64,000 bases of DNA from Eledone cirrhosa (lineage: Eukaryota). The stretch covers positions 20,770,001 through 20,834,000 of the forward strand of contig OZ024742.1 of NCBI GenBank assembly GCA_964016885.1. Reading direction: 5' to 3'. A model generated the notes under the pieces. That model had not been told where the DNA came from, made no database searches, and was given only the letters and a program-made list of their open reading frames with translations. Both the position numbers and the translations under genes were made by a program. Shown one piece after another: positions 3,901 through 56,520 of the stretch (positions are counted from its first letter, which is position 1; each line of letters starts with the position of its first letter).

Positions 3901-4331
3901 GATTATTCCAGTGCCCAGCAAACAGTAAGAGGCGAGACGTACCCAGAAAGGTCTCCAGGCGCCTAAAGAAGTCCGGTCGTCCGGCCCCTGTAGGGGCGTA
4001 GACGGCCAGCAGTCTAAAGCACCACCTTCGCTACTGCTCACATCCAAGACCACCAACTTACTGTCCGGGTCCCGGAAGATCGACCTTACCTCGAGTTCCA
4101 GTCCTTTCCTAAAAAGCACTGCCACCCCACCCCTATACCAGGTCTGCTAACAGATGCGAAGATCTGATAGTCGTCGAAAATGGGGGCTAGTGCGCGCCTG
4201 TCGGAAATTCTGCTCTCTCTGACGGCAATCACATCCATTTCCAGCAACCCGAGGTCGTTGAGCAGGCGACCCTGCTTCCAGGGTGACCCCAGGCCGCGAA
4301 CATTTAAAGTTCCTACTCTTAATATGGCCAT
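902..4331 (-). pseudogene. Tx1 ORF2 (AP endonuclease + reverse transcriptase), multiply frameshifted
   Basis: APE motifs TLNVRGL, SYIDRIF, YSDHK and GPGYWKLN. RT motifs KSPG, NFRPITLLNTEFKILAK, LDQSKVFDRVDH, VRQG and SAYADDITV. C-terminal WWTR..FFKFHL..KRW. Confidence 0.92.
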
Positions 4332-4360
4332 ATTGGTAAGCTAAGAGAGAGAGGGAAGGT

Positions 4361-6311
4361 TTACTTACCTCCCGGGGTCTTGTGAAGGTCGGGTGGTTCG
4401 ACCTCCATGGCTGGTGGGGTTTCTTTCTGGAACCCCTTTAAAAGTCTTGATGTAGGTTTCACACTCGGGTTCCCACGTCTTGAGGAAAGCTATCTCGAAT
4501 TTCTTTGATGGAATTGAGTGACATTCGGACCAGGAGCAAATCTTCTGGTACGCAAAATATGCTCATTTCAAAAATCTCCCCCTGTTTGAATGTCCTCGCT
4601 TCGTGCTAAGAGCGCCATCAGTTTATCGTTGGCCCTTCAGACAAGCACGAAGTTTTTAACATTTTGTTGGTGTGGTTTTATTTGTTTTCGTTTTGGTGAC
4701 TGTGGTGGTGTTGTTTCGGGTATGTCTGTGTTTGTTGTAGGTGTGGTGTCTGCAATTTCAGGTATTTGTATGTTTATTTGTACTTGTGTTTGTTTAGGTT
4801 GTTAGCGTTTCGGGGATTGTGGAGGTGGTGTCGATGTTGCTGTTGGTGATGATGTTATTGGGGAAATGTTTGCGTTAGTGGTGTCTGTATTTTTTGTTGT
4901 GTATGTTTTTGTGTTTTGTTGGGGCTTTTTTGTGTCAGTTTTCTGTTTTTTTGCACTTTGGGGTTTTCCTTCACCTTCGCTGCTGGGAGACAAAGGGTCT
5001 GTGGCTGTGAGTGTCTCTGTGTCTGTGTGTGCGTTTGTTGTTTTGTCTATGTGTATAATGGGGGGGGGGGGAGCTTTCCTCGTTTTCCTTTTGGATTGGT
5101 TTTGGTGTTGGTGGTGATCCGGCTGTTTTTGATGTTGGTGTCCGTGTTTTTGTTGGTGTGTTTTTGGTGGTGGTGGTGGCGCAGATTTCCGTGCTGACAC
5201 TGGCGTTGGCAACAAAGGAGGTTTGCGACCCCCTGCATTTTTTGCGCTGAGGGTAGAAGGCTTGCAGATGCGTTGCTTCCCCGCAGACGAAGCAGCATGG
5301 CCTTCTTCCGTCAATGATTAGTTGGATTGTTGTCCCGTCCTGCATGCGGGAAAAATCCGGGATATTGCTCATGTCCTCCGGTTTCATTTGGAGAAGAATC
5401 TCCAAATCCATTCCGGACTAGTCCTCTCTCTCTGTCCTTTCGATATCCAGGGGGGTAGTGTCTGTCCCCTCCTCGATTACTCATCCCAGCAGCCACCATA
5501 TGTTCATTCCTTGTGGGATGCTGGTAATGCGTACCTTTACTGTCCTTTTACCCATGTAGGACGGATGCAAGATAATGCGTTCCGTTCTGCAGGGGGTCAC
5601 CGAGTGCTTAATAGCGAGGGCCTCGGTTTTGAACAGTACCGAGATGGTACCGAACTGTTTGCCTCTTGCTTTATACTCTATGATACTTCCGATGTACTCC
5701 AAGGCAGCCTCGACGTCTGCTTGGCTGGCAAGTTCCACTTTTCGTGTCTGCACCGAAATGCATTGAAAGAACACCGTCCTCCTTTGCATGGCCGCTATTG
5801 CCTCGTCCGGGATGGCCAGGATTGCCCAGGACTTCTCCCGTTTAATTAACCTCCACGATTGGGCCAACTGTTCGTCTTTATCGCAAATATCAATATCAAT
5901 ATTCAATAAGCGCGTTGTTTTTGCTGCTGCTGCAGCAAATGTGGAGCTTCTGATGCTCTTATTGTTGGTGTTGTCATTCTTGCTGTTGTTATTGGTGTTG
6001 TTGTTGTTGTTTTGTTTGTTGATGCTGTTGCCACCGCCATCCGTGTTTACATTGAAGCTGTTGGTGTTATTGTCGTTATTACTCTGAGTTGTTGTTGTTG
6101 TGGTGGTGGCAGTGGTGGTGATGTCCTTTTCAGATGATACTGCTGCTATCACAGAAGGTTGTGATGGTAGCTTTTTAGTTTTGCCTTCACATTCAGTAGA
6201 GTGGACGAAAGGCATGACTGTAGCCGTCGTAGTCGTGGTGAAATCTGCAGTGGCTGCCTTTAAACTTTTGACCTGAACGTTGTTTACCGTTTCAAGGTCG
6301 AAAATTTCCAT
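4361..6311 (-). pseudogene. Tx1 ORF1 (gag-like, degenerate CCHC knuckle), frameshifted
   Basis: Pieces 5481-6311, 4971-5411 (GRRPCCFVCGEATHL) and 4802-5314. The C-terminus KETPPAMEVEPPDLHKTPGGK* ends at 4361. Confidence 0.75.
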
Positions 6312-6544
6312 AATTATTTTTTTGGTGGGGAAGCGATTTTTTTTGAAGTTTTTAAAAAATAAATCTGAATATTCGGGCTTAAAGCCCGAATATTGAGAGG
6401 TATCCCTCTCTTTAAATCAAGATGTGTACCTTAAGTTTCGTTAACGACAAGAAAATTTAAAAAATGACACTTTAAAACAGCTTAAAGTTACAAACCTTTT
6501 TCCCTCGCAGATTTGTACTGTCTTCACACATGTGCGGCCATATC

Positions 6545-7472: not shown

Positions 7473-10018
7473 CGTCTACAGCGTGATAATGTCACACAAA
7501 AATCACGTGGAGTGACGAAACCACCGGAGGCGATTAATTCACCGGTGGTTATGTAACCATACATTCACCAATCCTCGATAGGAGTGTTTAAATGTCGAAC
7601 CTAAACAGTTCGAATAACGGTGAAATGGAGACTAGAATGTCATGTGACAGACTCTCACCCAATAGGTGCTCCCTGGCTCAGCTGCAGGGACCTGGCTGTC
7701 AACCAAATACTGCTGGTGTCGGAGGAAGAAGAAGAAGGAAAGGGACCAGAACCAACTGGACGAAAGAATTGAATAGAACTCTTATGCAATGTTACCTGAA
7801 GAGTAACCCCAAGGAGAAAGGCTATAGGAAACGGATGCATAACATCTGGAACGAGATTGGTCTATTTAAATTAGATGAACAAAAATTGGCCGGGCAGGCT
7901 CGGGTAATAACAACTAATGGGTGGATAAGCGAGCTGGAACTGGAGGAACTGAGCAGATAGATTAGCTTGGAGATGGAGAGTGGAGTATGCCAGGCAAACG
8001 AGCCAGTGGGAAATGAAGGTGAGGAGGTCGAGAGAACGGAGGAACCACCCGAAGCAGACAATGATCTGAATGCTGAGATAAATAATACCTGGAACAGAGA
8101 TACGGCCACTGAGGAGATGAATGCTGACGGGCTAGGACAAGATTTGGTTGATATCCTAAACATAGTGGTAGATGAATTGAACAATGATAGTGGGAGACGT
8201 ATGAACCTAAGATTTGTAGACAGGAAAAAGTTAAAAGAAACAACAGCTAAGGTAAACAAAGTCATCCCATACCTTGAGGCGAGGAGCCTTCACCAGTGCA
8301 ACAATATCCTCAAAGAAACAGCAAATACGGTGAGGAAACTACTTGGTATAAAGGCGAGAGGAAACAACAGACAAGAAAGAGCAGAGCCTTGGTGGAAGAA
8401 ACGACTGACTGGTCAAATCAGGGAAATGAGAAATGACATTGAAAAGCTTGAGTCCCTACTGAATGGGACACTAAAAAACATAGACACTAAAAATAGACTG
8501 GAAATAAAGTACAAAACTAGGAGGAACAAGCTAAATATTATCATAGAGGAACTGAAGCAACGCATTGTAGCAAAGAGTGCAAAAATCCGGCGATACGAGA
8601 ACAGAGTCAGTCAGTATAGACAGAACCGCATGTTCGACAACAACCAGAAGATGCTGTTTGGACAGCTTGAAGGGAAAGAAAGAGGCAACGACTTGATCCC
8701 TGAGGCGGAACAAACTAAAATATTCTGGAGAGGAATATGGGAGCAGGATGTTAAACATAACGACCAGGCAGTGTGGATTGAGACAGTACAGAAGAAGATT
8801 AGTGAACAGGCACACCAACAAACTGATTTGAGTATGACAGTTGAAACTCTTGAAGGGCAGGCCAAAAAACTAACCAACTGGAAATCACCAGGCCCAGATG
8901 GTGTGCAGGGGTATTGGATTAAAAATATAACATCCCTCCACCCGAAACTGACAACCATGTTCAATGACTGCTTGATGTCAGGTGAGGTACCAGAGTGGTT
9001 GACAAAAGGCACCACAGTTCTGATAATGAAAGACCGAATCAAGGGTAATGATGTTACCAACTATAGACCTATCACATGTCTGTCCGTAATGTGGAAACTG
9101 TTGACAAGCATTATGTCTGAGGAAATAACATCAAGGAGAAAGAGCAGCCTTCAGGAAAAATCCCTTCATAGTACCTTCTTTGAGAAAACTGAATTTAGAG
9201 ATCCACAGACATGGAACTGGTTGAAAAGAGGAGACCTTAAAAAGGCTACAGAAGGAATGTTAATGGCTGCACAGGAGCATGCCCACAAAATGAAGTGGTT
9301 GAAACACCATATTTACAAGGAGGGGGCTAGCCCACTGTGCTGGATCTGTGGAGAGAGAGAGAGGAGACTGTGGCTCACATTGTATCCGAGTGTAAACACC
9401 TAGCCCAGGCTCACTATAAGAGCAGGAGACATGATGTGATGGGCAGGGTGATCCACTGGCACCTATGCAAAGTAAACAATTTACCACATTCTGAGAAGTG
9501 GTATGAGCATTAGCCAGAGTCGGTGATAGAAAACGATCAGGTGAAGGTGCTGAGGTATTTTAGGATACAGACGGACAAGAAACTGGAACAGATTAGACCT
9601 GACCTGGTGGTTGTGGACAAAGAAAAAAGATCGTGTCTGATTGTGGATGTGGCCGGCCCATTCGACACGAGAGTGTAAGAGAAGGAGAGGGAGAAAATTA
9701 ACCGATACCAGGACTTAAAGTGGGAGGTAAAAAGGATTTGGAACTGCCATGAAGTCAAAGTGATCCCGATTGTCATAGGCGCTAGGGACTATCTCAAAAA
9801 GTATCCTGGGATGGTTAAAGAAAATTGGCCCCTTCACGCTTTTTGGAACGCTTCAAAAGGCATGCTTGTTGGGAACAGCAAGAACCCTCCGATACGTCCT
9901 GAATATCTGAGGCTGCAGGTAGTGGCTTGATATTCATTCCAACAAACTTTCCAGTTAACTAACATCAATGACTGAGACTCAAAGAGTAATAACAATAATA
10001 ATAATTATTATTATTATT
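7473..10018 (+). mobile_element. R4/Dong-clade non-LTR element, family A, internally deleted
   Basis: N-terminal RTNWTKELN..GYRKRMHNIW..LELEEL, then PWWKKRL, WKSPGPDG and NYRPITCL. It jumps to EGMLMAAQE, CWICG, RHD and the RPDLVVVD..LIVDV restriction-like endonuclease, and ends in an (AAT)n tail. Confidence 0.88.
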
Positions 10019-10525
10019 GTATCCCAAGTTTCCTCAAACTATTTAACTCAAATATTAAGGAAATATGTCAACATATATATAAACATAGGCGACAAACCAC
10101 ATAGATATACAGATCAAACAAACGCATACTAGCTACAGTCTATTCAACAGAATTCAGTAGCAACAACGCCATCATTACAGTACCACTATCCCATCACCGC
10201 CGCCACCACTCCATCATTGCTACCACAACTATTCCCCCGCTACCTTCTGTTAACTTAAGAAAGGGGAAGGTGGCGGTAACACGAGACAAGGGAGAGGATA
10301 ACAAAAAGTATAAATAAACTTAGTGACTCGGTCAAAAGAAAACGACTCTGGCACTGAATTTCCCCGCCCCCCTTCCCCACAACAATAGAAAAAGCCCAGC
10401 ACCACCGGCATAGGCAACAATAACAACAGAGGCAATTCCAACAAAAAGTATATTACATTATTAATAATAATTTCTTTCTTAGGCACGTAGGTCTCACATT
10501 AAGGAACCATTCATGATAATAACAA
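10010..10525 (+). repeat. Dispersed non-coding module, copy 2, directly upstream of Dong-B copy 1
   Basis: Aligns by eye with 6640-6950 and, over its whole length, with the reverse complement of 32360-32950. Confidence 0.8.
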
Positions 10526-10561
10526 TTTAACCCCCCCCCCCCCCCCCCCAAAAAAAAAAAA

Positions 10562-13500
10562 AACTCCGTGACCAAGAAATACCAGGTGGCAGCCGGCGGG
10601 GAATAACCGTGTCTCTATTTGAGGACGATCCTTCTAGCCTTGGTTGACACTCGCCTTAGGAGTGGTAACACGAAATGATTTCCCCTTGGTGGCTAAGGAT
10701 AAAACGCAACAAAATAAAGCCAATGTCAAATGATAAAATATCATACCTGATCGGCCGTCACCCGGGTCAAAAAGGCCCGCGTCCCTCAAAGAGGAACCAG
10801 ACTGGGGTCGAAAAATCAGCTAATGGTTCAAACATTCCTATCAATTCGGAGATGGAGAACTCCCATAACCGGAATACTCCTACTGTTGGCCCTTCATGCT
10901 CACCACCAAGAAATCCAAAGAAAAAGAGAGAAAAATGTTCAAGGGAAAACAATAAAGAAGTCCTAGAGGCTTTCTACACTGCCATGTACTACCCATCAAA
11001 TAGATCGAATACCGAACAGACGTATATCAACTGGAAAAAGAAACATACCGAAAACAGAGGCTATATTGACAGTAACAAACTAGCTAATATACGAAGAAAT
11101 ATTGTTAAGAAAATGTTACTGATATAGAAATTGATTAGATCACGCAATTAACGCAAAGTTAGCGAAGGGAAAATGAAACGACTCAGTTAAAACGAGGTAA
11201 ATTGTAACACTTCAAATCCCAGGGTTGGGGCGGAATCACTGACAACAGAACAAATTAAAGAAAGGATCGAAAAAGTAGAAGGAGTGCATGCTCAAGATGG
11301 TACTCAAAATGAAAAGAATGAGATCATAAATGATAAAGAAATGAATGAGAATGAACTCGCCAACTTGAAGAATGAAATTATGATCGAATGGATGAAAATG
11401 GAAGAATCTGACATGTGGGAACGAGACATCTCCCTAAGATCCAGAACTCCAAACAAAACCAAAGGATAATACACAAGACTAACATAACTCTCAAAAACAT
11501 TATCATCACAAATAAACTAAACATTACTGATCTAAATCATTTCTATTATGCATCGGCTAAAGTCACCACTCACGTATGTGGAGTGAAAATGAACAAGAAC
11601 AAAGGAATTCCCACAAAAAACCTACTTTGCAAGAGAACATTAATCGCCAAATAAACCTTCTCCGATCTGACATAGAAATTTTAACAAACTACAAAGTAGG
11701 TGAACATGTTAAAGAAACTCAACTTAGAAAATTGAAAAGAAAATACAGTATAAAATCAACAAGTGACATGCTGATAGAAACAATCAAGCAAAAAGTGTCG
11801 GCCAAAGCTGCTCGTATAAGGCGCCTTGAAAAAAGATCTAGATTTTATAGGGATAATCATATGTTCAAAAACAACCAAAGAAACTACTACAGACAAATTG
11901 GCAAGTGAACAATAACTGCTAAATCAACACCACTAAAGGAGGAAGTGCAAGACTTCTGGGAAAAGATCTGGGCCGAAGAAAAAGTTCATAATATACATGC
12001 CCCATGGATAGATAGACAAATGAAAGATACAGCTCACCTTGAGGAGAAACATGGGAAAATATAACAGTTGAACAACTGCGTTTAGCTCTTAGAAAATCCA
12101 GCAAATGGAAATCCCCAGAGAAAGACAGTCTCATGAGTTGTTAGCCCAACTTCACAATGAAATGGTTAAGGAGCCAGAAGAGATACCATCATGGCTCGTT
12201 AACGGCATTACATTCCTACTTCCCAAGAATGATGAGACAAACAATCCCAAAATTACAGACAGATAACTTGCTTGACCACAATGTATAAAATGTTAACATC
12301 AGTCGTAACTGAATATACATATGATCACAAATGATCTATTTCTGAATGAGCAGAAAGGGTGAAAACGAGGCTCATATCGCTGTAAGGATCAGCATTTGGT
12401 TAACAAAATGATACTGGAAGATTGTCATAATAGACACAACAATCTATCAATTGCTTGGATAGATTGCAGAAAAGCATTCGATAGTTTGCCACACAGTTGG
12501 ATTGAAAAGTGTTTAGAGATTTTCAAAATATCTCCCGTTGTCAGGAGGTTCCTGTCAGTCAGTATGAAGACATGGAAAATGACACTCCTTTTCAATAGTG
12601 AATAAAAAATCACTGGAAGCTGAAGAAGTTAATATTAATTGTGGAATTTTTCAGGCTGACTCTTTATCACCGCTTTTATGCTGCATCGTACTTATACCAT
12701 TAAGTAAAATGCTCAGTGAAACAAAACATGAATATAAAGTCTATGACAAAACAATTAATCACATGTTCTACATGGATGACCTGAAACTATTTGCAAAAAA
12801 ATGATGAGTAATTGCAAGAGTTATTATCCACTGTGAAGCAGTTCAGTGATGATATTAAAATGGAGTTTGGACTAGATAAATGCTCCAAAACAACGTTCAC
12901 GAGAGGAAAGCTGCTGAAAAGTTCAGACATTAATCTTGATCGAGGGAATGTGATAAGAGAACTTGATCAAGAGGAAACTTACAAATATCTAGGTGTTTGT
13001 GAAGGAGACGGAATCAAGCACTCGACAATGAGGGAAAGGATAAGGAAGGAATGTTACCGAAGAGTTAAGGAATAGGATCGATACCATAAACACGCTTGCC
13101 ATACCAGTAGTAATCTACAGTTACAATATCACCAACTGGTCAAGCACAGAGATTCGTAGGCTCGATACAAAAATTAAAAAATTCTTAACCATGCACAGAA
13201 TGCATCACCCTAAGGCAGATACAGATATAATATATTTCCCTAGGAAAGAAGGAGGACGTGGGTTAATCCAGTTAGATATTGCGTTGAAAACTGCAACAAT
13301 TGGATTATCTACATATCTAAGAGAATCACATGATTGGATGGTCAAACTCGTTTTGAAACATTAAAGCATCAAAATATCATACTCCATTACAAAAGATGCA
13401 CAAAGACACAGTAATAAACTACACATTTCCGAAGTTCCATTTACTGCTGAAATGAAAAACACAGAAAAAGCAAAGCAGGTAAAAGTAACTGCAAAGAAAG

Positions 13501-14450
13501 AGCTGCTACTGAAATTGGCTAAGAAATGGCAAGAAAAGCTTCTGTATGGAAAATACCCAGAGCGAGCTAACAATCCTGATGTTGACAAAACTTTAACCCA
13601 TCAGTGGTTGGCATCCTCTGGACTGAAATCGGAGACTGAAGGACTGATTATATCAGCACAAGATCAGTGTCTGCCAACAAAAGATTACCAAGCCAACATA
13701 ATAAAAAATGGATGCAGCCCATTATGCCGTGTATGTAAAAAACAACCAGGGACCATTGATCATATAATTTCAATGTGCAGTCCTATAGCTCCAACCGAAT
13801 ACCAAAACAGGCATGACAGAACTGCACAATACATACATTGGATAGTGTGTAAGCATTTTGACCTGCCGCATCAAAAGAATTAGTGGGAGCATCAACCACC
13901 TCCCGTACTTGAAAAAGATCACATCTCAATCTTGTGGAAGTTTAGCATCCAAACAGACCGAAAAATAGATGCAAATAGACCTGATATAGTACTGAAGGAC
14001 TTTAAAAAGAGGTTATGCCTGCTAATTGATATGTCCTTTCCACTAAACAAGAATATATCTATAAAAAACATTTGAAAAGTTGAGCAAGTATAAAGACCTG
14101 GAGAAAGAAATTGGAAAAATATGTAAGTTGAGAATTAAAACAATACCAGTGGTTGTAGGCGCTCTAGGAATGATACCTAAGGGATATAATGATTACTTAT
14201 CGGAAACCCCAGGCAACAGCGTATAGAAGAAATACACAAGATAGTACTAATGGGAGCTGCCCATATACTTAGGAAGATTCTGTCACAAGTCTAAACACTA
14301 AAGATGCATGTGTGTATGTATGTTCTTTCTTGAACATGGCGGACCTTGTCTCTTGAAGTCACTGGTTGTGACTTGGTGATAACTCGTATGAACATAAAGC
14401 AAGATAAATGCAGTAATAGTAATAATAGTAATAATAGTAATAATAATAAT
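10562..14450 (+). mobile_element. R4/Dong-clade element, family B copy 1, near full-length, disrupted
   Basis: GIFQADSLSPL, HMFYMDDLKLF, YKYLG, ETEGLIISAQDQCL, CRVCKKQPGTIDHIISMC, RHD and NRPDIVLKD..LLID; (AAT/AGT)n tail. Confidence 0.92.
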
Positions 14451-28445: not shown

Positions 28446-31400
28446 AGTTGCATTTATCTTGCTTTATTTTCATACGAGTTATCACCAAGTCACAACCAGT
28501 GACCTCAAGAGACAACAAGGTCCGCCATGTTCAAGAAAGAACATACATATTCACACATGCATCTTTAGTGTTTAGACTTGTGATGTACTTATATTGACAG
28601 AATCTTCCTTAGTATATGGGCAGTTCCCATTAGTACTATCTTTTGTATTTCTCCTATACGCGGGTTTCCTGGGATTTGCGATAAGTAATCATTAGACCCC
28701 TTAGGTATCATTCCCAGAGCGCCTACAACCACTGGTATTGTTTTAGTTCTCAATTTCCACATTTTTCCAATTTCTATCTCCAGGTCCTTATACTTGCTCA
28801 ATTTTTCAAATGTTTTTATAGATACATTCTTGTCTATTGGAACGGACATATCAATTAGCAGGCATACCCTCTTTTTAAAGTCCAACATTATATCAATTCT
28901 ATTTGCATCTATTTTTCGGTCTGTTTGGATGCTAAAGTTCCACAAGATTGAGATGTGATCTTTTTCAAGTATGGGAGGTGGTTGATGCCCCACCAATTCT
29001 TTTGATGGGGCAGGTCAAAATGCTTACACATTATCCAATGTATGTATTGTGCAGCTCTGTCATGCCTGTTTAGGTATTCGGTTGGAGCTATAGGACTGCA
29101 CATTGAAATTATATGGTCAATGGTCTCTGGTTGTTTTTTACATACACGGCATAATGGGCTGCATCCATTTTTTATTATGTTGGCTTGGTAATTTTTTGTT
29201 GGCAGACACTGATCTTGTGCTGATATAATCAGTCCTTCAGTCTCCGATTTCAGTCCAGAGGATGCCAACCACTGATGGGTTAACGTTTTGTCAACATCAG
29301 GATTGTTAGCTCGTTCTGGGTGTTTTCCATACAGAGGCTTTTCTTGCCATTTCTTAGCCAGTTTCTGTAGCAGTTCTTTCTTTGCAGTTACTTTTACCTG
29401 CTTTGCTTTTTCTGTGTTTTCCATTTCAGTAGTAAGTGGGACTTCTGAAATGTGTAGCCCATTACTGTATCTTTGTGCATCTTTTGTAATGGAGTATGAT
29501 CTTTTGATGCTTTCATGTTTCAAAACGAGTTTGATCATGTAGATAATCCATTTGTTGCAGTTTTCAACGCAATGTCTAACTGGATTAACCCACGTCCTCC
29601 TTCTTTCCTAGGGAGATATATTCTATCTGTATCTGCCTTAGGGTGATGCATTCTGTGCATGGTTAAGAATTTTCGAATGTTTGTATCGAGCCTACGGATC
29701 TCTGTGCTTGACCAGTTGATGACATTGTAACTGTAGGTTACTACTGGTATGGCAAGCGTGTTTATGGCATCGATCCTATTCCTTGCATTCAATTCCGTTC
29801 TTAAGATTGCTCTTACTCTGTGGTAACATTCCTTCCTTATCCTTTCCCTCATTGTCGAGTGCTTGATTCCGTCTCCTTCACAAATACCTAGATATTTGTA
29901 AGTTTCCTCTTGATCAACTGCTCTTATCACATTCCCTCGATCAAGATTAATGTCTGAACTCTTCAGGAGCTTTCCTCTGGTGAACGTTGCTTTGGCGCAT
30001 TTATCTAGTCCAAACTCCATTTTAATGTCATCACTGAACTGCTCCACAGTGGATAATAGCCGTTGCAATTGTTCATCATTTGTTGCAAATAGTTTCAGGT
30101 CATCCATGTAGAACAAGTGATTAATGGTTTTGTCATAGACTTTATATCCATGTTTTGTTTCATTGAGCATTTTACTTAATGGTATAAGCGCGATGGAGCA
30201 TAAAAGCGGTGATAAAGAGTCAGCCTGAAAAATTCCACAATTAATATTAACTTTTCCAGCTTCCAGTGATTTTGTTTCACTATTCAAAAGGAGTGTCGTT
30301 TTCCATGTCTTCATACTGAATGACAAAAACCTAAGCATTTTTCAATCCAACTGTGTGGCAAATTATCGAATGCTTTTTTATAATCTATCCAAGCAATTGA
30401 TAGATTTTTGTGTCTATTATGACAATCTTCCAGTATCATTTTGTTAACCAAACGCTGATCCTTACAGCCATATGAGCCTCGTTTACACCCTTTCTGCTCA
30501 ATGGGAAATAGGTCATTTGTTATCAGGTGGTCATATGTATATTCAGTTAGGACTGATGTTAAAATTTTATACATTGTGGTCAAGCAAGTTATCGGTCTGT
30601 AATTTTTGGGATTGTTTGTCTCATCATTCTTCGGAAGCAGGAATGTAATGCCGTTAACTAGCCATGATGGTATCTTTTCTGGCTCCTTAACTATTTCATT
30701 GTAAAGTTGGGCTAACAGCTCATGAGACTCTGTGAAGGCATTTATCCAAAAATTTTGTATTTTGTTTTTCCTAGGGATTTCCATTAGCTGGTTTTTCTTA
30801 GAGCCAAATGAAAATTTCAACTGTTATATTTTCCCATATTTGTTCCTCAAGGTGAGCTGTATCTTTCATGTGTCTGTCTATCCATGGGGCATGTATATTA
30901 TGTACTTTTTCTTTGGCCCAGATCTTTTCCCAGAATTCTTGCACTTCCTCCTTGGGTGGTATTGATTTAGCAGTTATTGTTGACTTACCAATTTTTCTGT
31001 AGAAGTTTCTTTGGTTGGTTTTGAACATATTATTGTCCTTATAGAATCTAGATCGTTTTTCAAAGCGCCTTATACGAGCAGCTTTGGCCGACACTTTTTG
31101 CTTGATTATTTCTATCAGCATACCTATGTCACTTGTTGGTTTTATACTGTACTTTCTTTTCAATTTTCTAAGTTTAGTTTGTTTAACATGTTCACCTACT
31201 TTATAGTTTTTTAACATTTCTATGTCAGATCGGAGAAGGTTTATTGGCGATTGATGTTCTCTTGCCAAGTAGATTTCTTGTGGGAATTCCTTTGTTTTTT
31301 TCATCTTCACTCCACATAAGTTAGTGGTGACTTTAGCCGATGCATAATAGAGATGATTTAAATCAGTAATGTTTAGTTTGTTTGTGATGATAATGTTTTT

Positions 31401-32340
31401 GAGAATTATGTTAGTCTTGTGTATTATCTTTTGGTTCTGTTTGGAGTTCTGGATCTTAGGGAGGGTGTCTCGTTCCCCCATGTCAGATTCTTTCATTTTC
31501 ATCCATTCGATCATAATTTCATCCTTCAAGTTGGCAAGTTCATTCTCATTCATTTCTTTATCATTTACGATCTCATTGTTTTCATTTGGAATTTCATCTT
31601 GAGCATGCACTCCCTCCACTTTTCCGATCCTTTCTTTAATTTGTTCTGTTGTCAGTGATTCCGCCCCAACCCTGGGATTCGAAGTGTTACAATTTACCTC
31701 GTTTTCACTGACACATGTTTCATTTTCCCTTCGCTGACTTTGTGCTAATAGCTTGATCTGATCAATTTCTATATCAATTAGTAACTTATTTTTTACAATA
31801 TTTCTTCGTATATTGGCTAGTTTCTAACTGTCAATATAGCCTCTGTTTTCGGGATGTTTCTTTTTCCAGTTGATATATGTCTGTTCTGTATTCGATGTAT
31901 TTGATGGGTAGTACATGGCAGTGTAGAAAGCCTCAAGGACTTCTTTATTATCTTCCCTTGACCATTTTTCTCTCCTTTTCTTTGGATTTCTTGGTGGTGA
32001 GCATGGAGGGCCAACAGTAGGAGTATTCCGGTTATGGGAGGTCTCCAGCTCCGAAGTGATGGGAAGGTTTGAACCACTAGCTGATTTTTCGACCCCAGTC
32101 TGGTTCCTCTCTGAGGGACGCGGCCCTTTTTTACCCGGGTGACGGCCGATCCGGTATGAGATTTTATCATTAGACATTTACTTTATTTTGTCGCGTTTTA
32201 TCCTTATCCGCCAAGGGGTAATCATTTTTTGTTACCACTTCTAGAACGTGTGTCAACCAAGACTAGAGGGGTCGTTCTCCCCTAGAGACACGGCTATTCC
32301 CCGCCGGCCGCCATCCCTGTATTTCTTGGTCACGGGGTTT
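28380..32340 (-). mobile_element. R4/Dong-clade element, family B copy 2, near full-length, disrupted
   Basis: ORFs 31824-32177, 30798-31619, 30311-30820, 29535-30338, 28909-29538 and 28589-28996 carry the RT (YMDD), the CCHC knuckle and the RLE. Long (AAT)n tail at 28380-28443. Confidence 0.93.
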
Positions 32341-35469: not shown

Positions 35470-35557
<88 letters not shown>

Positions 35558-35559
<2 letters not shown>

Positions 35560-35883
35560 TAAGTTAAAGATGTACATCCATATATGTATACTGAAATACT
35601 AGTATGTATATGAATACACACACGTATACATATGTAGATGTACCAAGTTTTTTCACTGGTCACTTTACTGTGAGTGGCCAGCTATTCTGTATGTAAACAC
35701 ACAGACAAACCGGTTTTTAGAGTCATACTGGTTTGTCTGTGTGTTTACATACAGAATAGCTGGCCACTCACAGTAAAGTGACCAGTGAAAAAACTTGGTA
35801 CATCTACATATGTATACGTGTGTGTATTCATATACATACTAGTATTTCAGTATACATATATGGATGTACATCTTTAACTTAAT
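35558..35883. repeat. Perfect palindrome, 154-bp arms, 18-bp spacer
   Basis: 35558-35711 is the reverse complement of 35730-35883. Confidence 0.95.
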
Positions 35884-36070: not shown

Positions 36071-36269
36071 GTGTGTGTGTGTTAGTAGTATAATATAATG
36101 TGAAATATATGATGAACCTCACTTTCTGTCTATTTAAGAGAGTTGTATATGATGGCGTTTTTGTATGGCAGAAGAGGAGTATGGAAATATATACCAGGTA
36201 ATATACCATGTTAATAAATAAAGCTGACATACACACACCACACACACGTATATTCATATATACATATAT

Positions 36270-36316
<47 letters not shown>

Positions 36317-36550
36317 TATGCATGTATACGTACATACATATATGTATACAGACGTACAGTAGCATGCACATATATATATATATATACATATATACATACA
36401 TATGCATACAGGTACACATACATATATGCACGTATCAGTTTAGCGGCGCTAACGTCGCTTTGTTCGTTTGTAACCAAACTGAACAGCCTGAATTTATGCC
36501 ATACGGTGTTAAGGCAACCACGTCACCTTTTTGTTCAACACTGACACAGG

Positions 36551-36595
36551 AACGATGTACTAGTTTCAAGCTTGTTAGCTATCATCAGCACCGTT
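36551..36595 (-). ncRNA. Type I hammerhead ribozyme, inverted unit
   Basis: Reverse complement of the 36929-36973 motif. Confidence 0.75.
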
Positions 36596-36928
36596 TACCC
36601 ATCTGCCAGATAGTTGAACGTTCGAAAGTATATACTTTCCTTATGAAAATTAACGGCTGAGCAGCCTAATTTGCATATATATATATATGTGCATGCTACT
36701 GTACGTCTGTATACATATATGTATGTACGTATACATGCATACTTACATTTAAGTAAGTGCCATACTAAGAGTGAGAAATGAAATTTCGTTTTCATTTTGT
36801 TTCAATTTATCGTTTTCGGTATGCCTGACCGATTTAACTCACTCAATATGCAAATTAGGCTGCTCAGCCGTTAATTTTCATAAGGAAACTATATACTTTC
36901 GAACGTTCAACTATCTGGCAGATGGGTA

Positions 36929-36973
36929 AACGGTGCTGATGATAGCTAACAAGCTTGAAACTAGTACATCGTT
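36929..36973 (+). ncRNA. Type I hammerhead ribozyme, unit 1
   Basis: AACGGUG-CUGAUGA-U-AGCU-aaca-AGCU-U-GAAA-CUAG-UA-CAUCGUU. Stem I 7 bp, stem II 4 bp, palindromic stem III (ACUAGU), GUA cleavage triplet ending at 36966. Confidence 0.8.
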
Positions 36974-37394
36974 CCTGTGTCAGTGTTGAACAAAAAGGTG
37001 ACGTGGTTGCCTTAACACCGTATGGCATAAATTCAGGCTGTTCAGTTTGTTTACAAACGAACAAAGCGACGTTAGCGCCGCTAAACTGATACGTGCATAT
37101 ATGTATGTGTACCTGTATGCATATGTATGTATATATGTATATATATATATATATGTGCATGCTACTGTACGTCTGTATACATATATGTATGTACGTATAC
37201 ATGCATACTTACATTTAAGTAAGTGCCATACTAAGAGTGAGAAATGAAATTTCGTTTTCATTTTGTTTCAATTTATCGTTTTCGGTATGCCTGACCGATT
37301 TAACTCACTCAATATGCAAATTAGGCTGCTCAGCCGTTAATTTTCATAAGGAAAGTATATACTTTCGAACGTTCAACTATCTGGCAGATGGGTA

Positions 37395-37439
37395 AACGGT
37401 GCTGATGATAGCTAACAAGCTTGAAACTAGTACATCGTT
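37395..37439 (+). ncRNA. Type I hammerhead ribozyme, unit 2
   Basis: Identical to 36929-36973. Confidence 0.8.
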
Positions 37440-37860
37440 CCTGTGTCAGTGTTGAACAAAAAGGTGACGTGGTTGCCTTAACACCGTATGGCATAAATTC
37501 AGGCTGTTCAGTTTGTTTACAAACGAACAAAGCGACGTTAGCGCCGCTAAACTGATACGTGCATATATGTATGTGTACCTGTATGCATATGTATGTATAT
37601 ATGTATATATATATATATATGTGCATGCTACTGTACGTCTGTATACATATATGTATGTACGTATACATGCATACTTACATTTAAGTAAGTGCCATACTAA
37701 GAGTGAGAAATGAAATTTCGTTTTCATTTTGTTTCAATTTATCGTTTTCGGTATGCCTGACCGATTTAACTCACTCAATATGCAAATTAGGCTGCTCAGC
37801 CGTTAATTTTCATAAGGAAAGTATATACTTTCGAACGTTCAACTATCTGGCAGATGGGTA

Positions 37861-37905
37861 AACGGTGCTGATGATAGCTAACAAGCTTGAAACTAGTACA
37901 TCGTT
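37861..37905 (+). ncRNA. Type I hammerhead ribozyme, unit 3
   Basis: Identical to 36929-36973. Confidence 0.8.
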
Positions 37906-38326
37906 CCTGTGTCAGTGTTGAACAAAAAGGTGACGTGGTTGCCTTAACACCGTATGGCATAAATTCAGGCTGTTCAGTTTGTTTACAAACGAACAAAGCG
38001 ACGTTAGCGCCGCTAAACTGATACGTGCATATATGTATGTGTACCTGTATGCATATGTATGTATATATGTATATATATATATATATGTGCATGCTACTGT
38101 ACGTCTGTATACATATATGTATGTACGTATACATGCATACTTACATTTAAGTAAGTGCCATACTAAGAGTGAGAAATGAAATTTCGTTTTCATTTTGTTT
38201 CAATTTATCGTTTTCGGTATGCCTGACCGATTTAACTCACTCAATATGCAAATTAGGCTGCTCAGCCGTTAATTTTCATAAGGAAAGTATATACTTTCGA
38301 ACGTTCAACTATCTGGCAGATGGGTA

Positions 38327-38371
38327 AACGGTGCTGATGATAGCTAGCAAGCTTGAAACTAGTACATCGTT
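38327..38371 (+). ncRNA. Type I hammerhead ribozyme, unit 4
   Basis: Same motif; the only change is in loop II (aaca to agca). Confidence 0.8.
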
Positions 38372-38666
38372 CCTGTGTCAGTGTTGAACAAAAAGGTGAC
38401 GTGGTTGCCTTAACACCGTATGGCATAAATTCAGGCTGTTCAGTTTGTTTACAAACGAACAAAGCGACGTTAGCGCCGCTAAACTGATACGTGCATATAT
38501 GTATGTGTACCTGTATGCATATGTATGTATATATGTATATATATATATATATGTGCATGCTACTGTACGTCTGTATACATATATGTATGTACGTATACAT
38601 GCATACTTACATTTAAGTAAGTGCCATACTAAGAGTGAGAAATGAAATTTCGTTTTCATTTTGTTT

Positions 38667-38722
<56 letters not shown>

Positions 38723-38783
38723 ACAGAACACAAAACGATAAGTTCTTGTTTTGAATATGTCACTATCTGTAAAACAACTTTTA

Positions 38784-38845
38784 TATTTTATCTGATGAGT
38801 GCGTACCAAAAATGTTGGTACCCTTGAAATATATATAATAAAATA
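38784..38845 (+). ncRNA. Type I hammerhead ribozyme, second family (also at 47.2-47.5 kb)
   Basis: UAUUUUAU-CUGAUGA-gugc-GUACCAA-aaaug-UUGGUAC-ccuu-GAAA-UAUAUA-UA-AUAAAAUA. Confidence 0.7.
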
Positions 38846-38947
38846 AATATGGTTTTATAAAGTTAGTTTCCATTTATTAATATTATATATATCTATATAT
38901 CTCTATATATATGTCTATATCTATATCTATCTATCTATCTATATATC

Positions 38948-43226: not shown

Positions 43227-43274
<48 letters not shown>

Positions 43275-43281
<7 letters not shown>

Positions 43282-45795
43282 ATACTTGGGGAGGGTCATA
43301 TTTGCGTAATATTGCCAGAATTAATAACAGAACACACTCACTGTTTGGTTGATTTTCGCTTCTCGCTGTCTTTTATATCTGCGATCTAACTTACTCGGTC
43401 CTCAATGTTGCCATTGACTGACCGACGGTCAAAAATAATACAGATACAATATAGACACAAACACATATATATAGTTTACATAATTTACATAAATCTTTCG
43501 TTGCACATCTGCAACATCGTCAGTGGTGTTATATTCTTTTTTTCCTCCTGTTGTGTTGTATGTCTACGCCATTTTTTATTCAGTCTGTCTATTTTGCTGT
43601 GAAAAGATGTGTGGAGATGATCATTGAGAGTGAGGTGGAGTTCTGCGACGTCGACACAGACGAACTGTGCCTCCTACTTAGACTTACCTACGACACTGAC
43701 TACCTAGACAGCCATGACCTTAGATGTTTCTGCCCTAGTAGACCTATAAGAGGTAGACCTCCCACCATAACCTCAATGGCAAAAAAGACTCCCATAGGAA
43801 GGTGGATTGGGTGGACCAAAGCTATACGGAACCCCCAAAACACTGATCAGGTAAGAAAAGTGGTCGCACATGCAATAGGGGCTAGTATCAAAACTACCCT
43901 AAAGGGCCACATATTTAAGTTCAATGAGAAAATCTACACCCAAAATGAGGGAGCAGCCATCGGCGTCAGCATAGCTGGTGATGTTGCCAACCTTTTCATG
44001 GTATGGTGGGAAAGGAGACTTAAAGATCTCCTTAATGAAAGCTCCATAGATCTCATCATGTACTCTCGTTATGTAGACGATATCAATATAGTTATAAGAA
44101 CACCCCCACTAGAGAGCACTAACAAGTTTGATTTAGTACGTAGCACGATGGAAAGCATCCAGCAGATAGCTAATTCCATACACCAGAGTATAACTGTAAC
44201 TATCGACTTCCCTTCCAAACACCCTAACAATAGACTACCTGTATTAGACACAGAACTCTGGATTAACACTATAAAGAGAGAGCCCAAATTCTCCACTCAC
44301 ACTATGCTAAACCCATGGCCTCCAAATACCTGATACTCAAAAACTCAGCAATGTCCAGTAGTGCTAAGTTTAATATTCTGATCGCAGATTTGGTACGAGT
44401 GATGAAGAATGTGTCCAGCATGTGCGACCAACAGAAATGGAAAGACACATCCAACACTTCATCAACCGCATACAGTTCTCTGGCTACAACCAAAGAGACA
44501 GAGTCAGAGTATACGAAGGAGCCATGGAAAAGTATAAGACCCTCATAGAACTGGACATGAAAGGAATTTGCCCACTATACAGGAGCAAATCATGGAATAG
44601 CTTAGATAGGGCTAGACATAAGATAGGGAAGGCCACATCATGGTACGACAACCAGAGATATCAGAGTGCCATGTTTGTGGACGCCACCCCTGGAGGGAAA
44701 TTAGCTAACCAGTGTAGAAAAGCCCTGAGAAAGACCCACTTAAAAATAAAGGTGGTAGAAAAGCCAGGAACCACCATAAAATCCTTGATCAGCAAAACCT
44801 ATCCTTTTAAGAAAGCCCACTGTACCAATAGGAAATGTATCATATGTAAGGTGAACCCCCGGATAAACTGTAAAACTAGAAACGTAGTCTATAGCATAAG
44901 ATGTACAGAGGGTACTTGCAGAAACATGACAACAACATACATAGGTGAGACAGCTCGTAGCATAGGTGAAAGGATAGACCAACACTGGGGGGAACTAAAA
45001 GGACGAAAAAACGGGTCAGTACTATACGAACATGCTAGACAACAACATGACGGTAACATAGACAACATAGAAATTAGAATAATATCTAAACATAGGAATG
45101 ACCCAGCAGATAGGCAAATCAGAGAGGCCAGTGAAATAGAAATTAGAAGACCAAAGCTAAACAGAAAGAATGAGTGGAACAACAACAACACCCAAACAAG
45201 CAACACTGACCTAAGAGAAGTATAAATAAGTAAATAAAATAAAATAAAATAAGATAAATAAATACATACACAAGTACAATAACAACAAGCACATACACAC
45301 ACACTAGTCACCCAACAGACACAACACTATACACACTAGTCACACAGCACACATAACACTATACACACACGCAAACGCATGTGCAAAGAAGACAAAATAA
45401 AATAAACAAACAAGCAAATAAATAAATAAATATATAGACAGACTGAATAAAAAATGGCGTAGACATACAACACAACAGGAGGAAAAAAAAAGAATATAAC
45501 ACCACCACGATGTTGCAGATGTGCAACGAAAGATTTATGTAACTTATGTAAACTATATATATGTGTTTGTGTCTATATTGTATCTGTATTATTTTTGACC
45601 GTCGGTCAGTCAATGGCAACATTGAGGACCGAGTAAGTTAGATCGCAGATATAAAAGACAGCGAGAAGCGAAAACCAACCAAACAGTGAGTGTGTTCTGT
45701 TATTAATTCTGGCAATATTACGCAAATATGACCCTCCCCAAGTATAACAATATCTGTTTCGACACACGATTTCATATAAAAAACCTCGCTAAACT
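43275..45795 (+). mobile_element. Penelope-like element, Naiad-type, 5'-truncated with inverted pseudo-LTR, in (TA)n
   Basis: 43275-43592 is the reverse complement of 45434-45752. The RT and GIY-YIG ORF lies between them, with (TA)n on both sides. Confidence 0.92.
43593..45225 (+). pseudogene. PLE RT + Cx4Cx2C linker + GIY-YIG endonuclease, about two frameshifts
   Basis: YTQNEGAAIGVSIAGDVANLFM, YSRYVDDI, LPVLD, FVDATPGG, CTNRKCIIC..C, VVYSIRC..C..YIGETARS..ERIDQH..H...H, RQIREA and LNRKNEW. Confidence 0.92.
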
Positions 45796-47185: not shown

Positions 47186-47514
47186 ATATTCAATGATATT
47201 AAGTAAATAGAAACTATATTTATAAAACCATATTTATTCTATTATATATATTTCAAAGGTACCAAAACTTTGATACGCTATCATCAGATAAAATACGAAG
47301 TGTGCTTTATACATTTTAATATAACCAAGGAAAATACCTTAACGGTTCAAGTTTTCCATAAGCTATTTTACTTGGTTATGTCAAAATTTATAAAGCACAC
47401 TTTGTATTTTATCTGATGATAGCGTACCAAAGTTTTGGTACCTTTGGAATATATATAATAGAATAAATATGGTTTTATAAATATAGTTTCCATTTATTTA
47501 ATATCATTGAATAT
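47186..47514. mobile_element. PLE-terminus fold-back (~155-bp arms) with an HHR motif in each arm
   Basis: Arms 47186-47340 and 47360-47514, homologous to 38770-38885. The minus-arm HHR (47235-47295) keeps GAAA; the plus-arm copy reads GGAA. Confidence 0.8.
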
Positions 47515-52491: not shown

Positions 52492-52594
52492 CTGTATTCA
52501 AATGTTACTAAGTAGTCGCATTGGATGGAGTCAACCGACGTCGGAGATTGCTCAACGTATAATAAAGTGTGTTTTAAAATCCGGAGAAAATATG

Positions 52595-53220
52595 AAGAAG
52601 AAGTTTATGAAACGGAAATGCGGGTATAAAGAATTTATTAGGTAACAATTGTTTCTATAGTGTATGGGTTACCTATACCTCGCTATTTGTATAATATAAA
52701 AATGTTATCATAAATCGTAGGTACACTGTAAGAAAACACACCATGTCGTCAGACCTTTGTAGTAGAATGATATGAAAATATTTTATACACTAGATATAAG
52801 AGAAAGAAGGAGGTAGGAAGGGAAGAGGAAGAGGGAAGCGAGTAAGGGGGAGGGAGTCTTAGGATTTAAGACTGTCAGAGTAGTAGAGATTATAAGGAGA
52901 AAATGTTTTGGCAGCAGTTAGCTTAATGAGGCGTGTTAGGGTTGGCGGGGGAAGTAAATTCTTCCTCCCCCTTACTCGCTTCCCTCTTCCTCTTCCCTTC
53001 CTACCTCCTTCTTTCTCTTATATCTAGTGTATAAAATATTTTCATATCATTCTACTACAAAGGTCTGACGACATGGTGTGTTTTCTTACTGTGTACCTAC
53101 GATTTATGATGATATTTTTATATTATACAAATAGTGAGGTATAGGTAACCCATACACTATAGAAACAATTGTTACCTAATAAATTCTTTATACCCGCATT
53201 TCCGTTTCATAAACTTCTTC

Positions 53221-53222
<2 letters not shown>
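52595..53222. repeat. Long fold-back, ~259-bp near-perfect arms, 110-bp spacer, between (TA)n runs
   Basis: 52595-52853 is the reverse complement of 52964-53222 with a few mismatches. Confidence 0.92.
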
Positions 53223-53251
<29 letters not shown>

Positions 53252-54210: not shown

Positions 54211-55989
54211 TATATATATACACACATCCGTGCACACCTATATTCATATACAGATATACATACTAGATACATTTTGGTAATAAGCAACGAGGGAGAAAGT
54301 TTGTACTGATATGTTTATACATATAAATATAGAAAAGAAGGCCTGAACAGCGTTAGACGAAATTCAATTAATACCACTGATAGAAGAAAAACAAAAATAC
54401 TAAGCACGTTGATTAAGGCTTCATTTTACAACGTGTATAACTGCATATCTTTGCCACTAGAAGCAATGAATTGATAATTAAATATAAACGTTTCGTTATT
54501 CATCTGTTTGAAAGTATTCGCTGTTTTAAGCATTTCTCAACAGATTTATCGTAGGAATATAGTTATCCGACAGATTTATTTCACAAAATCCATTAATTGC
54601 AATGTAAACTAATCTGTTTTTGTTTATTATATTTATTTATTTTTGTTCCTTTAATACTTGATACGAATACTTCTGTATATGCAAATATATTTACGTATAT
54701 CTTCTGGAATTCTGTTAGTTCTGCCGACAAGTGTTCCAGTTGTGCCATCAAAGGAACAGCCTGCTCATGAAGTTTACCTGCATATGTCTGAGCATTTCAG
54801 AGAGGCATATACTATTCTCTGTGACATTCAGCGTGGCAATATTGGATTGGCAGTATCGGTAGGGGGTCGGACGCTATACTTTGCAGCATAGAGTTCCGTC
54901 CCTTTATGATCTGAGTTCAAATCCGCTAATTGCAGTGTGTGAGGTACGTTTATTTGCGTCTGTTTTGTCAGTCAACCGCTTATAACAATAATTTACTGTA
55001 TCGAACTTGAGAAAATAGATAGAGATGTACTTAGAAAGCTTTTAATAGGGGTTCACCGGATATTGAGAAGGCACCCTCGAAAATCTTGCTATGTATTTGT
55101 TCCGTATATAACAGTAATATGCGTGGGTTATTTTATTAAAATACGAAAGACTTCTGTAATAATTAAATGATAACTGATCGTAAGAAATCATATTATTTTT
55201 GATAAAGAATGTTCTTGCAATCATACATACTGTGTATTGACGAATGATTTATAATTTGCCTTGCAATCACTAGTTTCCGGGTTCGAGCCCACTGTAGGGC
55301 ATCACTAGAATGTGCCAAATATTATATCCTCAGGTGGAATTATACATTGTGAGTGAAACTGGGTAGAGGGATACTGTTTGGATTACTATCTTGTCAACAG
55401 TATCTGTATTCAAACAGGCAACAATTATCCCACACTGCTCAAACATCTTGAGCTATGGGTACCCGTGTCTGTGGAATTTTCAGGCATTAAATATGGTAAT
55501 GTCACGAACAGGGTTTTCTGTTGATCGAACAAGAAGAACCTTGATTGTCGAAAGCAACGGTGATGCATCGACTTTATAATTAGGATCTGAAAGGTTTCGA
55601 TCATTTCTTTCAATTTATTAAACGTTGGGCTTGCATTTGGGAGGTTGTGAGTCTGATTCTCGGACCTGGTGACATGGTGATGTCCTTGAGCAAGACACTT
55701 TTTTTCACGTTGCTCCAGGTTTCTCAAATGTAGAAATGAGTTGCGACGTCACTGGTGCCAAACTGTATCGGCCATAGCCTGTCCCTTGGAAATATCGGAG
55801 AGACGTGGAGAAGGGAGATTGGTACGCATGGGTAAATCGTGGTTTTTCAGAACCAAACTTTGCCCAGGAGTGAACCTTGGAGCGAAACTTTCTAGGTGCA
55901 AAGCCATGGTTATTAGTGGCCGATGGGATCCGTTAAAAATACTGTACTATTATAGTCAGGCAAATATTTTACTAGTAGAGGCAATCTAT

Positions 55990-56520
55990 CATATGAAATA
56001 GCAAACATCTCTCGTATTATCATGTGAAATAGCATACATCTAATGTATTGTAATATGGAATAGCAAACATTTAACATATAGTCATATGAAATAGCATACA
56101 TCTAATATATTATCATATGAAATAGCATACATCTAATATATTGTCATATGAAATAGCATACATCTAATATATTGTCATATGAAATAGCAAACATCTAATG
56201 TATTGTCATATGAAATAGCATACATCTAATGTATTATCATATGGAATAGCAAACATCTAACATATAGTCATATGAAATAGCATACATCTAATATATTGTC
56301 ATATGGAATAGCATACATCTAATGTATTGTAATATGGAATAGCAAACATTTAACATATAGTCATATGAAATAGCATACATCTAATGTATTATCATATGGA
56401 ATAGCATACATCTAATATATTGTCATATGAAATAGCAAACATCTAATATATTGTCATATGAAATAGCAAACATCTAATGTATTGTCATATGGAATAGCAT
56501 ACATCTAATATATTGTCACA
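55990..56520. repeat. 31-bp minisatellite, ~17 copies
   Basis: Unit catatgaaatagcatacatctaatatattgt. Confidence 0.92.

Follow-up and report, generated by a model that had tools for sequence, protein, structure and literature searches.

For animal retrozymes, the identity of the mobilising enzyme and the RNA circle as the true template have been proposed, not shown (PMC7229834, PMC7761336, 10.64898/2026.07.22.740005). Penelope-like elements (PLEs) insert into (TA)n targets with an inverted 5'-truncated copy and a tail of 30-40 bp (10.1101/2021.04.23.441226). In vitro, this tail was shown to be delimited by two internal sites at which the reverse transcriptase (RT) starts, and both DNA strands were cut and extended; the anole PLE, the only one reconstituted in vitro, worked mainly on uncut RNA and did not require the hammerhead (PMC11167929). 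Hammerheads with a short palindromic helix III act as dimers (PMC4209133). The axolotl hammerhead HHR_Amex2, which has a U-U at the base of helix II, cleaves 22% as a monomer and much more as a dimer (PMC7229834), and eight of nine Xenopus retrozyme dimers showed no cleavage in vitro (10.64898/2026.07.22.740005).

Here we analysed a tandem hammerhead repeat in a 64,000-nt stretch of Eledone cirrhosa DNA, hereafter the window. Tandem Repeats Finder delimited an array at 36675-38674 with a period of 466, 4.3 copies and 99% matches. The initial annotation had described about 4.3 head-to-tail 466-bp units under the coordinates 36313-38670. This description holds for the 4.3 direct units on the forward strand (36675-38670); 36313-36678, within the same coordinates, is instead an inverted partial copy on the reverse strand. 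This 5'-truncated arm is a reverse-complement copy (372 nt at 99%) with one substitution relative to the direct units; it comprises unit positions 346-466 followed by 1-245, counted from the predicted cut, and its outer end is the "short" one of two fixed ends described below. The arms meet head to head at 36675-36678 with a 4-nt overlap, the direct arm starting at 36675 and the inverted arm reaching 36678. The direct arm is 5'-truncated at unit position 175 and finishes at the "long" fixed end, position 306; it alone carries the Penelope-type tail, the ~60 nt between both fixed ends (38610-38670, forward strand). The whole insertion, with both arms, lies between a left (36258-36312) and a right (38671-38718) (TA)n target tract. 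Base-by-base comparison of the direct units at period 466 over 36675-38670 found mismatches only at 36889 and at 38347 in loop II of unit 4, the two substitutions originally reported.

The three predicted cut-to-cut monomers on the forward strand (36967-37432, 37433-37898 and 37899-38364) are each 466 nt long, in agreement with the earlier prediction, and the first, like the unit in general, has a GC content of 36%. Every unit includes a TA-rich self-complementary block at unit positions 123-251 (37089-37217 on the forward strand), the length of which determines the unit length of each array. This block is identical in 5/5 copies, as expected from the reported match of the internal (TA)n lengths. 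The hairpins named in the initial annotation are present, and the monomer is predicted to fold with -156 kcal/mol (z -7.8; 0/100 shuffles as good), or with a z of -5.2 (60 shuffles) when the TA block is removed. Rfam microRNA matches on this block were dismissed as composition artefacts. No credible ORF had been recognised in the unit; the longest Met-started frames in the four-mer span 48 codons on the ribozyme strand and 112 codons on the other strand. Neither the unit nor the insertion contains an RT plus GIY-YIG reading frame, and we therefore rejected the assignment of the element as an autonomous PLE.

Each unit also contains ATGCAAAT, which we take to be an octamer (37313-37320), and a TATATA box (37356-37361), which precede the cut by 115 and 75 nt, respectively. 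The octamer is retained in the direct copy of a sister subfamily (locus L061). Both motifs together possibly constitute an internal promoter.

The family was counted by pattern searches of the genome assembly. The exact 31-nt hammerhead core gave 10,718 matches genome-wide, a looser core with N7 and loop II left free 25,215, and the tail motif 33,879; reversed-pattern controls gave none. For mapping, 53 loci were taken from the first 100 exact-core matches, to which 27 loci from the looser-core list and 20 from variant searches were added, so that the samples represent the start of one contig or chosen variants and are non-random. Unit lengths across these loci range from 419 to 573 bp, and no LTR layout was seen in the mapped loci. 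The initial annotation had suggested a search for dispersed, multimeric, TA-flanked copies and had set against its own reading the case of a single locus arising by local tandem duplication or from an assembly artefact. Since such copies are present in the genome by the thousands, this latter case is ruled out. Tandem hammerhead units, dispersed multimers, low GC content and a self-paired monomer agree with the proposed retrozyme-type element, and support the view that the insertion at 36313-38670 is a young copy of a high-copy, protein-free hammerhead repeat of the non-LTR retrozyme type.

A type I hammerhead motif was found in 4/4 direct units, at 36925-36975, 37391-37441, 37857-37907 and 38323-38373 on the forward strand, the last of which includes the loop II change at 38347. 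The CUGAUGA sequences at 36936, 37402, 37868 and 38334 and the predicted cuts after 36966, 37432, 37898 and 38364 reproduce the one hammerhead per unit and the cut positions given earlier. The inverted arm adds a fifth type I motif on the reverse strand (36549-36599) with a predicted cut between 36558 and 36557. The motif is composed of a 7-bp stem I plus 2 bp, CUGAUGA, a 4-bp stem II over a U-U mismatch, GAAA, and a stem III formed by the palindromic ACUAGU, which pairs over 1-2 bp in the monomer and over 6 bp between two copies. The canonical core (C3-A9, G12-A15.1, U16.1-H17) and three helices are all present, and the G10.1-C11.1 pair closing helix II is absent. U-U occupies this position in 167/167 pieces, which were found by the core pattern, and in 22/22 tail-anchored pieces, and it recurs in other hammerheads of the genome. 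The hammerhead thus unites two weak features, the U-U under stem II and a stem III of 1-2 bp. The first had been entered as a caveat, which stands as an observation and weighs less than feared, because axolotl HHR_Amex2 cleaves with the same U-U (PMC7229834).

The palindromic stem III is very short, which suggests that cleavage would take place in a double hammerhead. The double hammerhead is predicted at -21.8 kcal/mol compared to -5.0 kcal/mol for two monomers; a non-hammerhead, inactive dimer fold is predicted to be stabler (-25.5 kcal/mol). Ribozyme activity is predicted. Within the 64-kb window no Rfam hammerhead reached its gathering score, HH9 scoring 18.5 bits where the cut-off is 52 (E 0.071), and hence the identification as a ribozyme is based on the core motif together with its conservation in the family.

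To assess this conservation, 30 loci were retrieved by the tail motif; after removal of 7 duplicates and of 10 lacking a hammerhead-spanning piece, 13 loci with 22 pieces were left. In these tail-anchored loci, recurrent alleles occurred at 2/31 core positions (N7 and loop II) compared to 23/118 and 22/85 positions in the flanks. The core is also conserved across subfamilies: a sister subfamily, ~80% identical, carries a G-U to U-G swap in stem I, present in 34/167 pieces. Locus L200 has a degenerate core in both of its pieces. The scarcity of core alleles relative to the flanks and the stem I swap were counted in favour of a ribozyme under constraint.

Counted from the predicted cut, outer ends of the arrays cluster at about 245-255 nt and at about 305-310 nt. 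In the main group (the window and 53 loci), 49 of the 87 terminal pieces end near 310 and 38 near 251, and 68 pass directly into TA repeats in a strict test; a few entries in this set are chance matches in TA-rich DNA. The 30 terminal pieces of the sister group split 19 and 11 between both ends. Fifty-nine loci are head to head, with both ends resolved in 41 and one end left unplaced in 18. One short and one long end were combined in 39 of the 41 resolved two-armed insertions (p 8e-10 vs coin toss). The fixed outer ends lie ~59 nt apart and are each used once per insertion, and the longer arm can be either of the two. Autonomous elements with RT and GIY-YIG domains in the same genome likewise have two ends in (TA)n. 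Two fixed ends, an inverted arm and (TA)n flanks match both the published PLE layout and these autonomous elements, from which we strongly infer that the family is mobilised by Penelope-like machinery. The initial annotation had also considered borrowed PLE machinery, a proposal that the inverted arm and the two fixed ends now place on firmer ground.

To find a possible source of this machinery, 50 GIY-YIG loci were considered (of at least 150 scored, from 10,596 candidates), and none of them contained a pLTR homologous to the unit. Copies of the unit within three of the loci (L061, L075 and L076) are separate insertions. Derivation of the element from a truncated autonomous PLE was rejected, as there is no coding remnant and no homologous PLE in the 50 loci. 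One locus, L063, includes an open RT-GIY-YIG frame of 938 codons; judged by the CxxC linker described in 10.1101/2021.04.23.441226, its family appears Neptune-like. This family has 1,631 motif matches in the genome, its young members include L063, L064, L070, L072, L073 and L076, and U replaces C3 in the hammerhead-like motif of every copy seen. Measured from this motif, the ends of the family lie 241-243 and 307-310 nt downstream, about 65 nt apart. Alignment of the whole unit to this family scored 40 compared to a shuffle mean of 56. An end-anchored 40-nt match had a p of 0.0005 as one of 12 comparisons and was equalled by 0/5000 random 40-mers; this match was picked post hoc, is AT-rich and pairs the long end of the element with the short end of the PLE. 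The L063 family is thus a candidate helper only, and serves as a lead.

The window and the mapped loci contain further elements. At 43274-45790 lies a separate 5'-truncated Penelope-like element with RT and GIY-YIG-like frames (43455-45225), a 247-nt inverted arm, a ~45-nt tail and (TA)n flanks, which has a relative in L064. Another hammerhead-like family with a long stem II and a palindromic AT stem III is represented at 38780-38860 on the forward strand, adjoining the right side of the array, and at 47230-47300 on the reverse strand, with relatives in L061, L072 and L075. A near-perfect 160-bp inverted repeat with a short spacer beside a (TA)n tract (35557-35883) may be the two-armed stub of another PLE-mobilised element, and 267-nt inverted arms, 98% complementary and ending in (TA)n (52590-53227), look similarly two-armed. 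L065, L066, L070 and L073 contain yet another hammerhead element; its stem II has a U-U at the base, and its two ends, ~65 nt apart, are joined to (TA)n. Decayed LINE-like frames are located at 7592-13887, 28589-32313 and 902-6416, including two related copies in opposite orientation (90-95%), and a 31-bp minisatellite of 17 copies (55989-56518) adjoins a 1-kb TA-rich tract.

Regarding the template, inner ends of the arms are scattered, and of the 56 that could be resolved only one is 5 nt or less from the cut. The cut site itself is crossed letter-perfect in 105/123 main-group pieces, with one visible indel and 4 pieces unmatched. RTs of retroelements are capable of template jumping, and a linear cut monomer on which the enzyme jumped repeatedly from the 5' end to the 3' end would likewise yield one haplotype per array. 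Such jumping would be expected to leave stops or indels at the cut, yet inner ends are scarce there and the junction is nearly always exact, which makes this route highly improbable. We favour, as the probable reading of the template, reverse transcription round a circle, and consider the insertion in the window to be probably a young PLE-type insertion into (TA)n that was copied from a circular 466-nt monomer RNA. Multimeric transcripts would be cut by double hammerheads between neighbouring units, and a host ligase would close the monomers into circles, which would likely serve as template. A Penelope-like reverse transcriptase-endonuclease acting in trans would cut both strands of (TA)n and prime one cDNA at each of two internal sites, which lie about 251 and 310 nt past the cut. 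These cDNAs would each continue across the ligation point, making up to ten rounds, before being joined head to head.

Uniformity within arrays bears on this reading. L162 carries 11 identical 480-nt monomers over both arms, and related arrays have their own unit lengths (466-480) and their own variants, these homogeneous arrays having been chosen for sharing a variant, a selection that favours homogeneity. Among the arrays of this chosen set with at least two cut-to-cut monomers, 4/18 are letter-identical, L162 being one of them. One array carries the variant 373G in 11 units, the 12 further matches in the genome being all single, and the variant of L102 is in tandem at one locus only (3/6 matches). 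Uniform young arrays and the occurrence of these two variants in tandem at one array each are as expected of one monomer copied many times. Other variants are shared: 66A is common to several arrays, of 15, 11 and 3 units, and 345T and 303T are each common to several arrays. Divergence within the array is below that to the nearest other locus in 12/31 arrays only, which we regard as not decisive for a circle; the means are 1.7% within arrays and 1.5% to the nearest locus, compared to 7.5% for the median locus. A survey of 35 arrays gave only 4 rare variants fixed in their array. The shared variants, together with the near-identical counterparts that many arrays have elsewhere, leave room for a homogeneous multimeric source.

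With such a source, the same element and a Penelope-type enzyme could have copied a linear transcript that reads through a long homogeneous array and stays uncut, in which case no circle would be needed and the hammerhead would matter little. Scarce ends at the cut and clean junctions fit this equally well, the anole PLE mainly uses uncut RNA in vitro (PMC11167929), and the 66A arrays are possible long sources. However, a source of the same variant at least as long as the longest arm is required, and the genome holds none for 373G or the L102 variant, although one assembly may miss it. Older arrays also vary unit by unit in TA length (484, 502, 484, 494 and 456 in L084), an unsystematic look noticed no locus pair with a repeated unit-length pattern, and the origin of new uniform unit lengths would be left unexplained. 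We therefore judge an uncut multimeric template unlikely, while giving it some weight.

Expansion in place is a further explanation of the tandem structure, in which short PLE-type insertions of one or two units later grew by unequal crossing-over or slippage in the manner of a minisatellite, as has been put forward for vertebrate retrozymes (10.64898/2026.07.22.740005). Most two-armed loci do have a single long arm, and the older array L136 contains a perfect in-place ABAB duplication, in which 13 differences separate A from B and the outer units are distinct. These outer units agree with neither A nor B, and a dimer circle was therefore rejected for L136. In L161, where a single unit is converted, the idea that a heterogeneous multimer was copied in register was discarded, since only one pair of units matches. 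Clear local duplication was found in only 1/31 multi-unit arrays. L162 and L163 are multimeric in both arms with one haplotype, very young arrays already have at least 10 units, and differences within arrays mostly affect single units without hierarchy, with shared columns numbering 0/12 in L129 and 2/20 in L102. These observations argue against local expansion, which we hold to be improbable as the general origin of the arrays.

Marks of RNA editing were not confirmed, A>G accounting for 1/4 array-fixed rare variants and for 2/14 changes in two-piece loci; both fixed changes in L164 are A>G, a number too small to judge editing. Returning to the circle, a more specific reading is twin rolling-circle reverse transcription, in which a PLE-type dimer would prime both ends of the (TA)n break on a single circle, at two sites 59 nt apart, each copy going round it up to ten times, and the L063 family would act as helper via the shared 40-nt end motif. 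This combination is plausible, and we advance it with slightly more doubt than trust. If true, genomes would show what the retrozyme model only proposes, namely a circle as template and a PLE as helper. The family displays the Penelope footprint unusually clearly; both RT start sites are mapped, and the genome also contains a candidate helper with an intact frame. The family further bears on the formation of PLE tails and inversions. Footprint, mapped starts and candidate helper make the question of enzyme and template testable in the published in vitro PLE system.

Among known systems, newt satellite-2 (PMC7229834, PMC4209133) is similar in its tandem hammerhead repeats with a weak helix III and dimer action, but forms long satellite blocks, whereas the arrays described here are short, dispersed and of fixed ends. 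EN+ Penelope-like elements (Neptune, Poseidon, Naiad; 10.1101/2021.04.23.441226, PMC11167929) share partial tandems, an inverted 5'-truncated copy, a tail between RT start sites, (TA)n targets and a hammerhead with palindromic helix III. In contrast to these, the unit lacks an RT-endonuclease frame, the whole unit repeats, and both arms may reach many units. The tail is ~59 nt long compared to 30-40 bp in the PLE papers, and to about 50 and 65 nt in autonomous elements of the same genome.

Metazoan non-LTR retrozymes from coral, mussel and axolotl (PMC7229834, 10.64898/2026.07.22.740005) consist, like the family described here, of tandem non-coding units with one type I hammerhead each, and are likewise of low GC content, with a self-paired monomer, thousands of copies and co-existing PLEs. 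The U-U base of helix II recurs in axolotl HHR_Amex2 and the short palindromic helix III in HHR_Amex1 (PMC7229834), whereas the present hammerhead combines both. Xenopus retrozyme families have a pLTR parent (10.64898/2026.07.22.740005), unlike this unit in the 50 GIY-YIG loci considered. Cleavage and circles have been demonstrated for metazoan retrozymes, whereas for the present unit both are predictions. Two-armed (TA)n insertions with a PLE tail are undescribed in the main texts of the retrozyme papers; the word "inverted" occurs 0 times in that of PMC7229834 and once, in a reference, in that of 10.64898/2026.07.22.740005. Literature searches turned up neither a cephalopod retrozyme nor two-armed insertions of retrozymes, and the supplements of these two papers could list this family or a relative. 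Units of 150-450 bp and circles of 170-400 nt are reported for retrozymes (PMC7229834), compared to 466 here and about 420-570 family-wide. Altogether, all the sequence features tested agree with a metazoan non-LTR retrozyme, this slightly long unit being the only exception; the class is already known, and what its sequence adds is a further family of metazoan non-LTR retrozymes.
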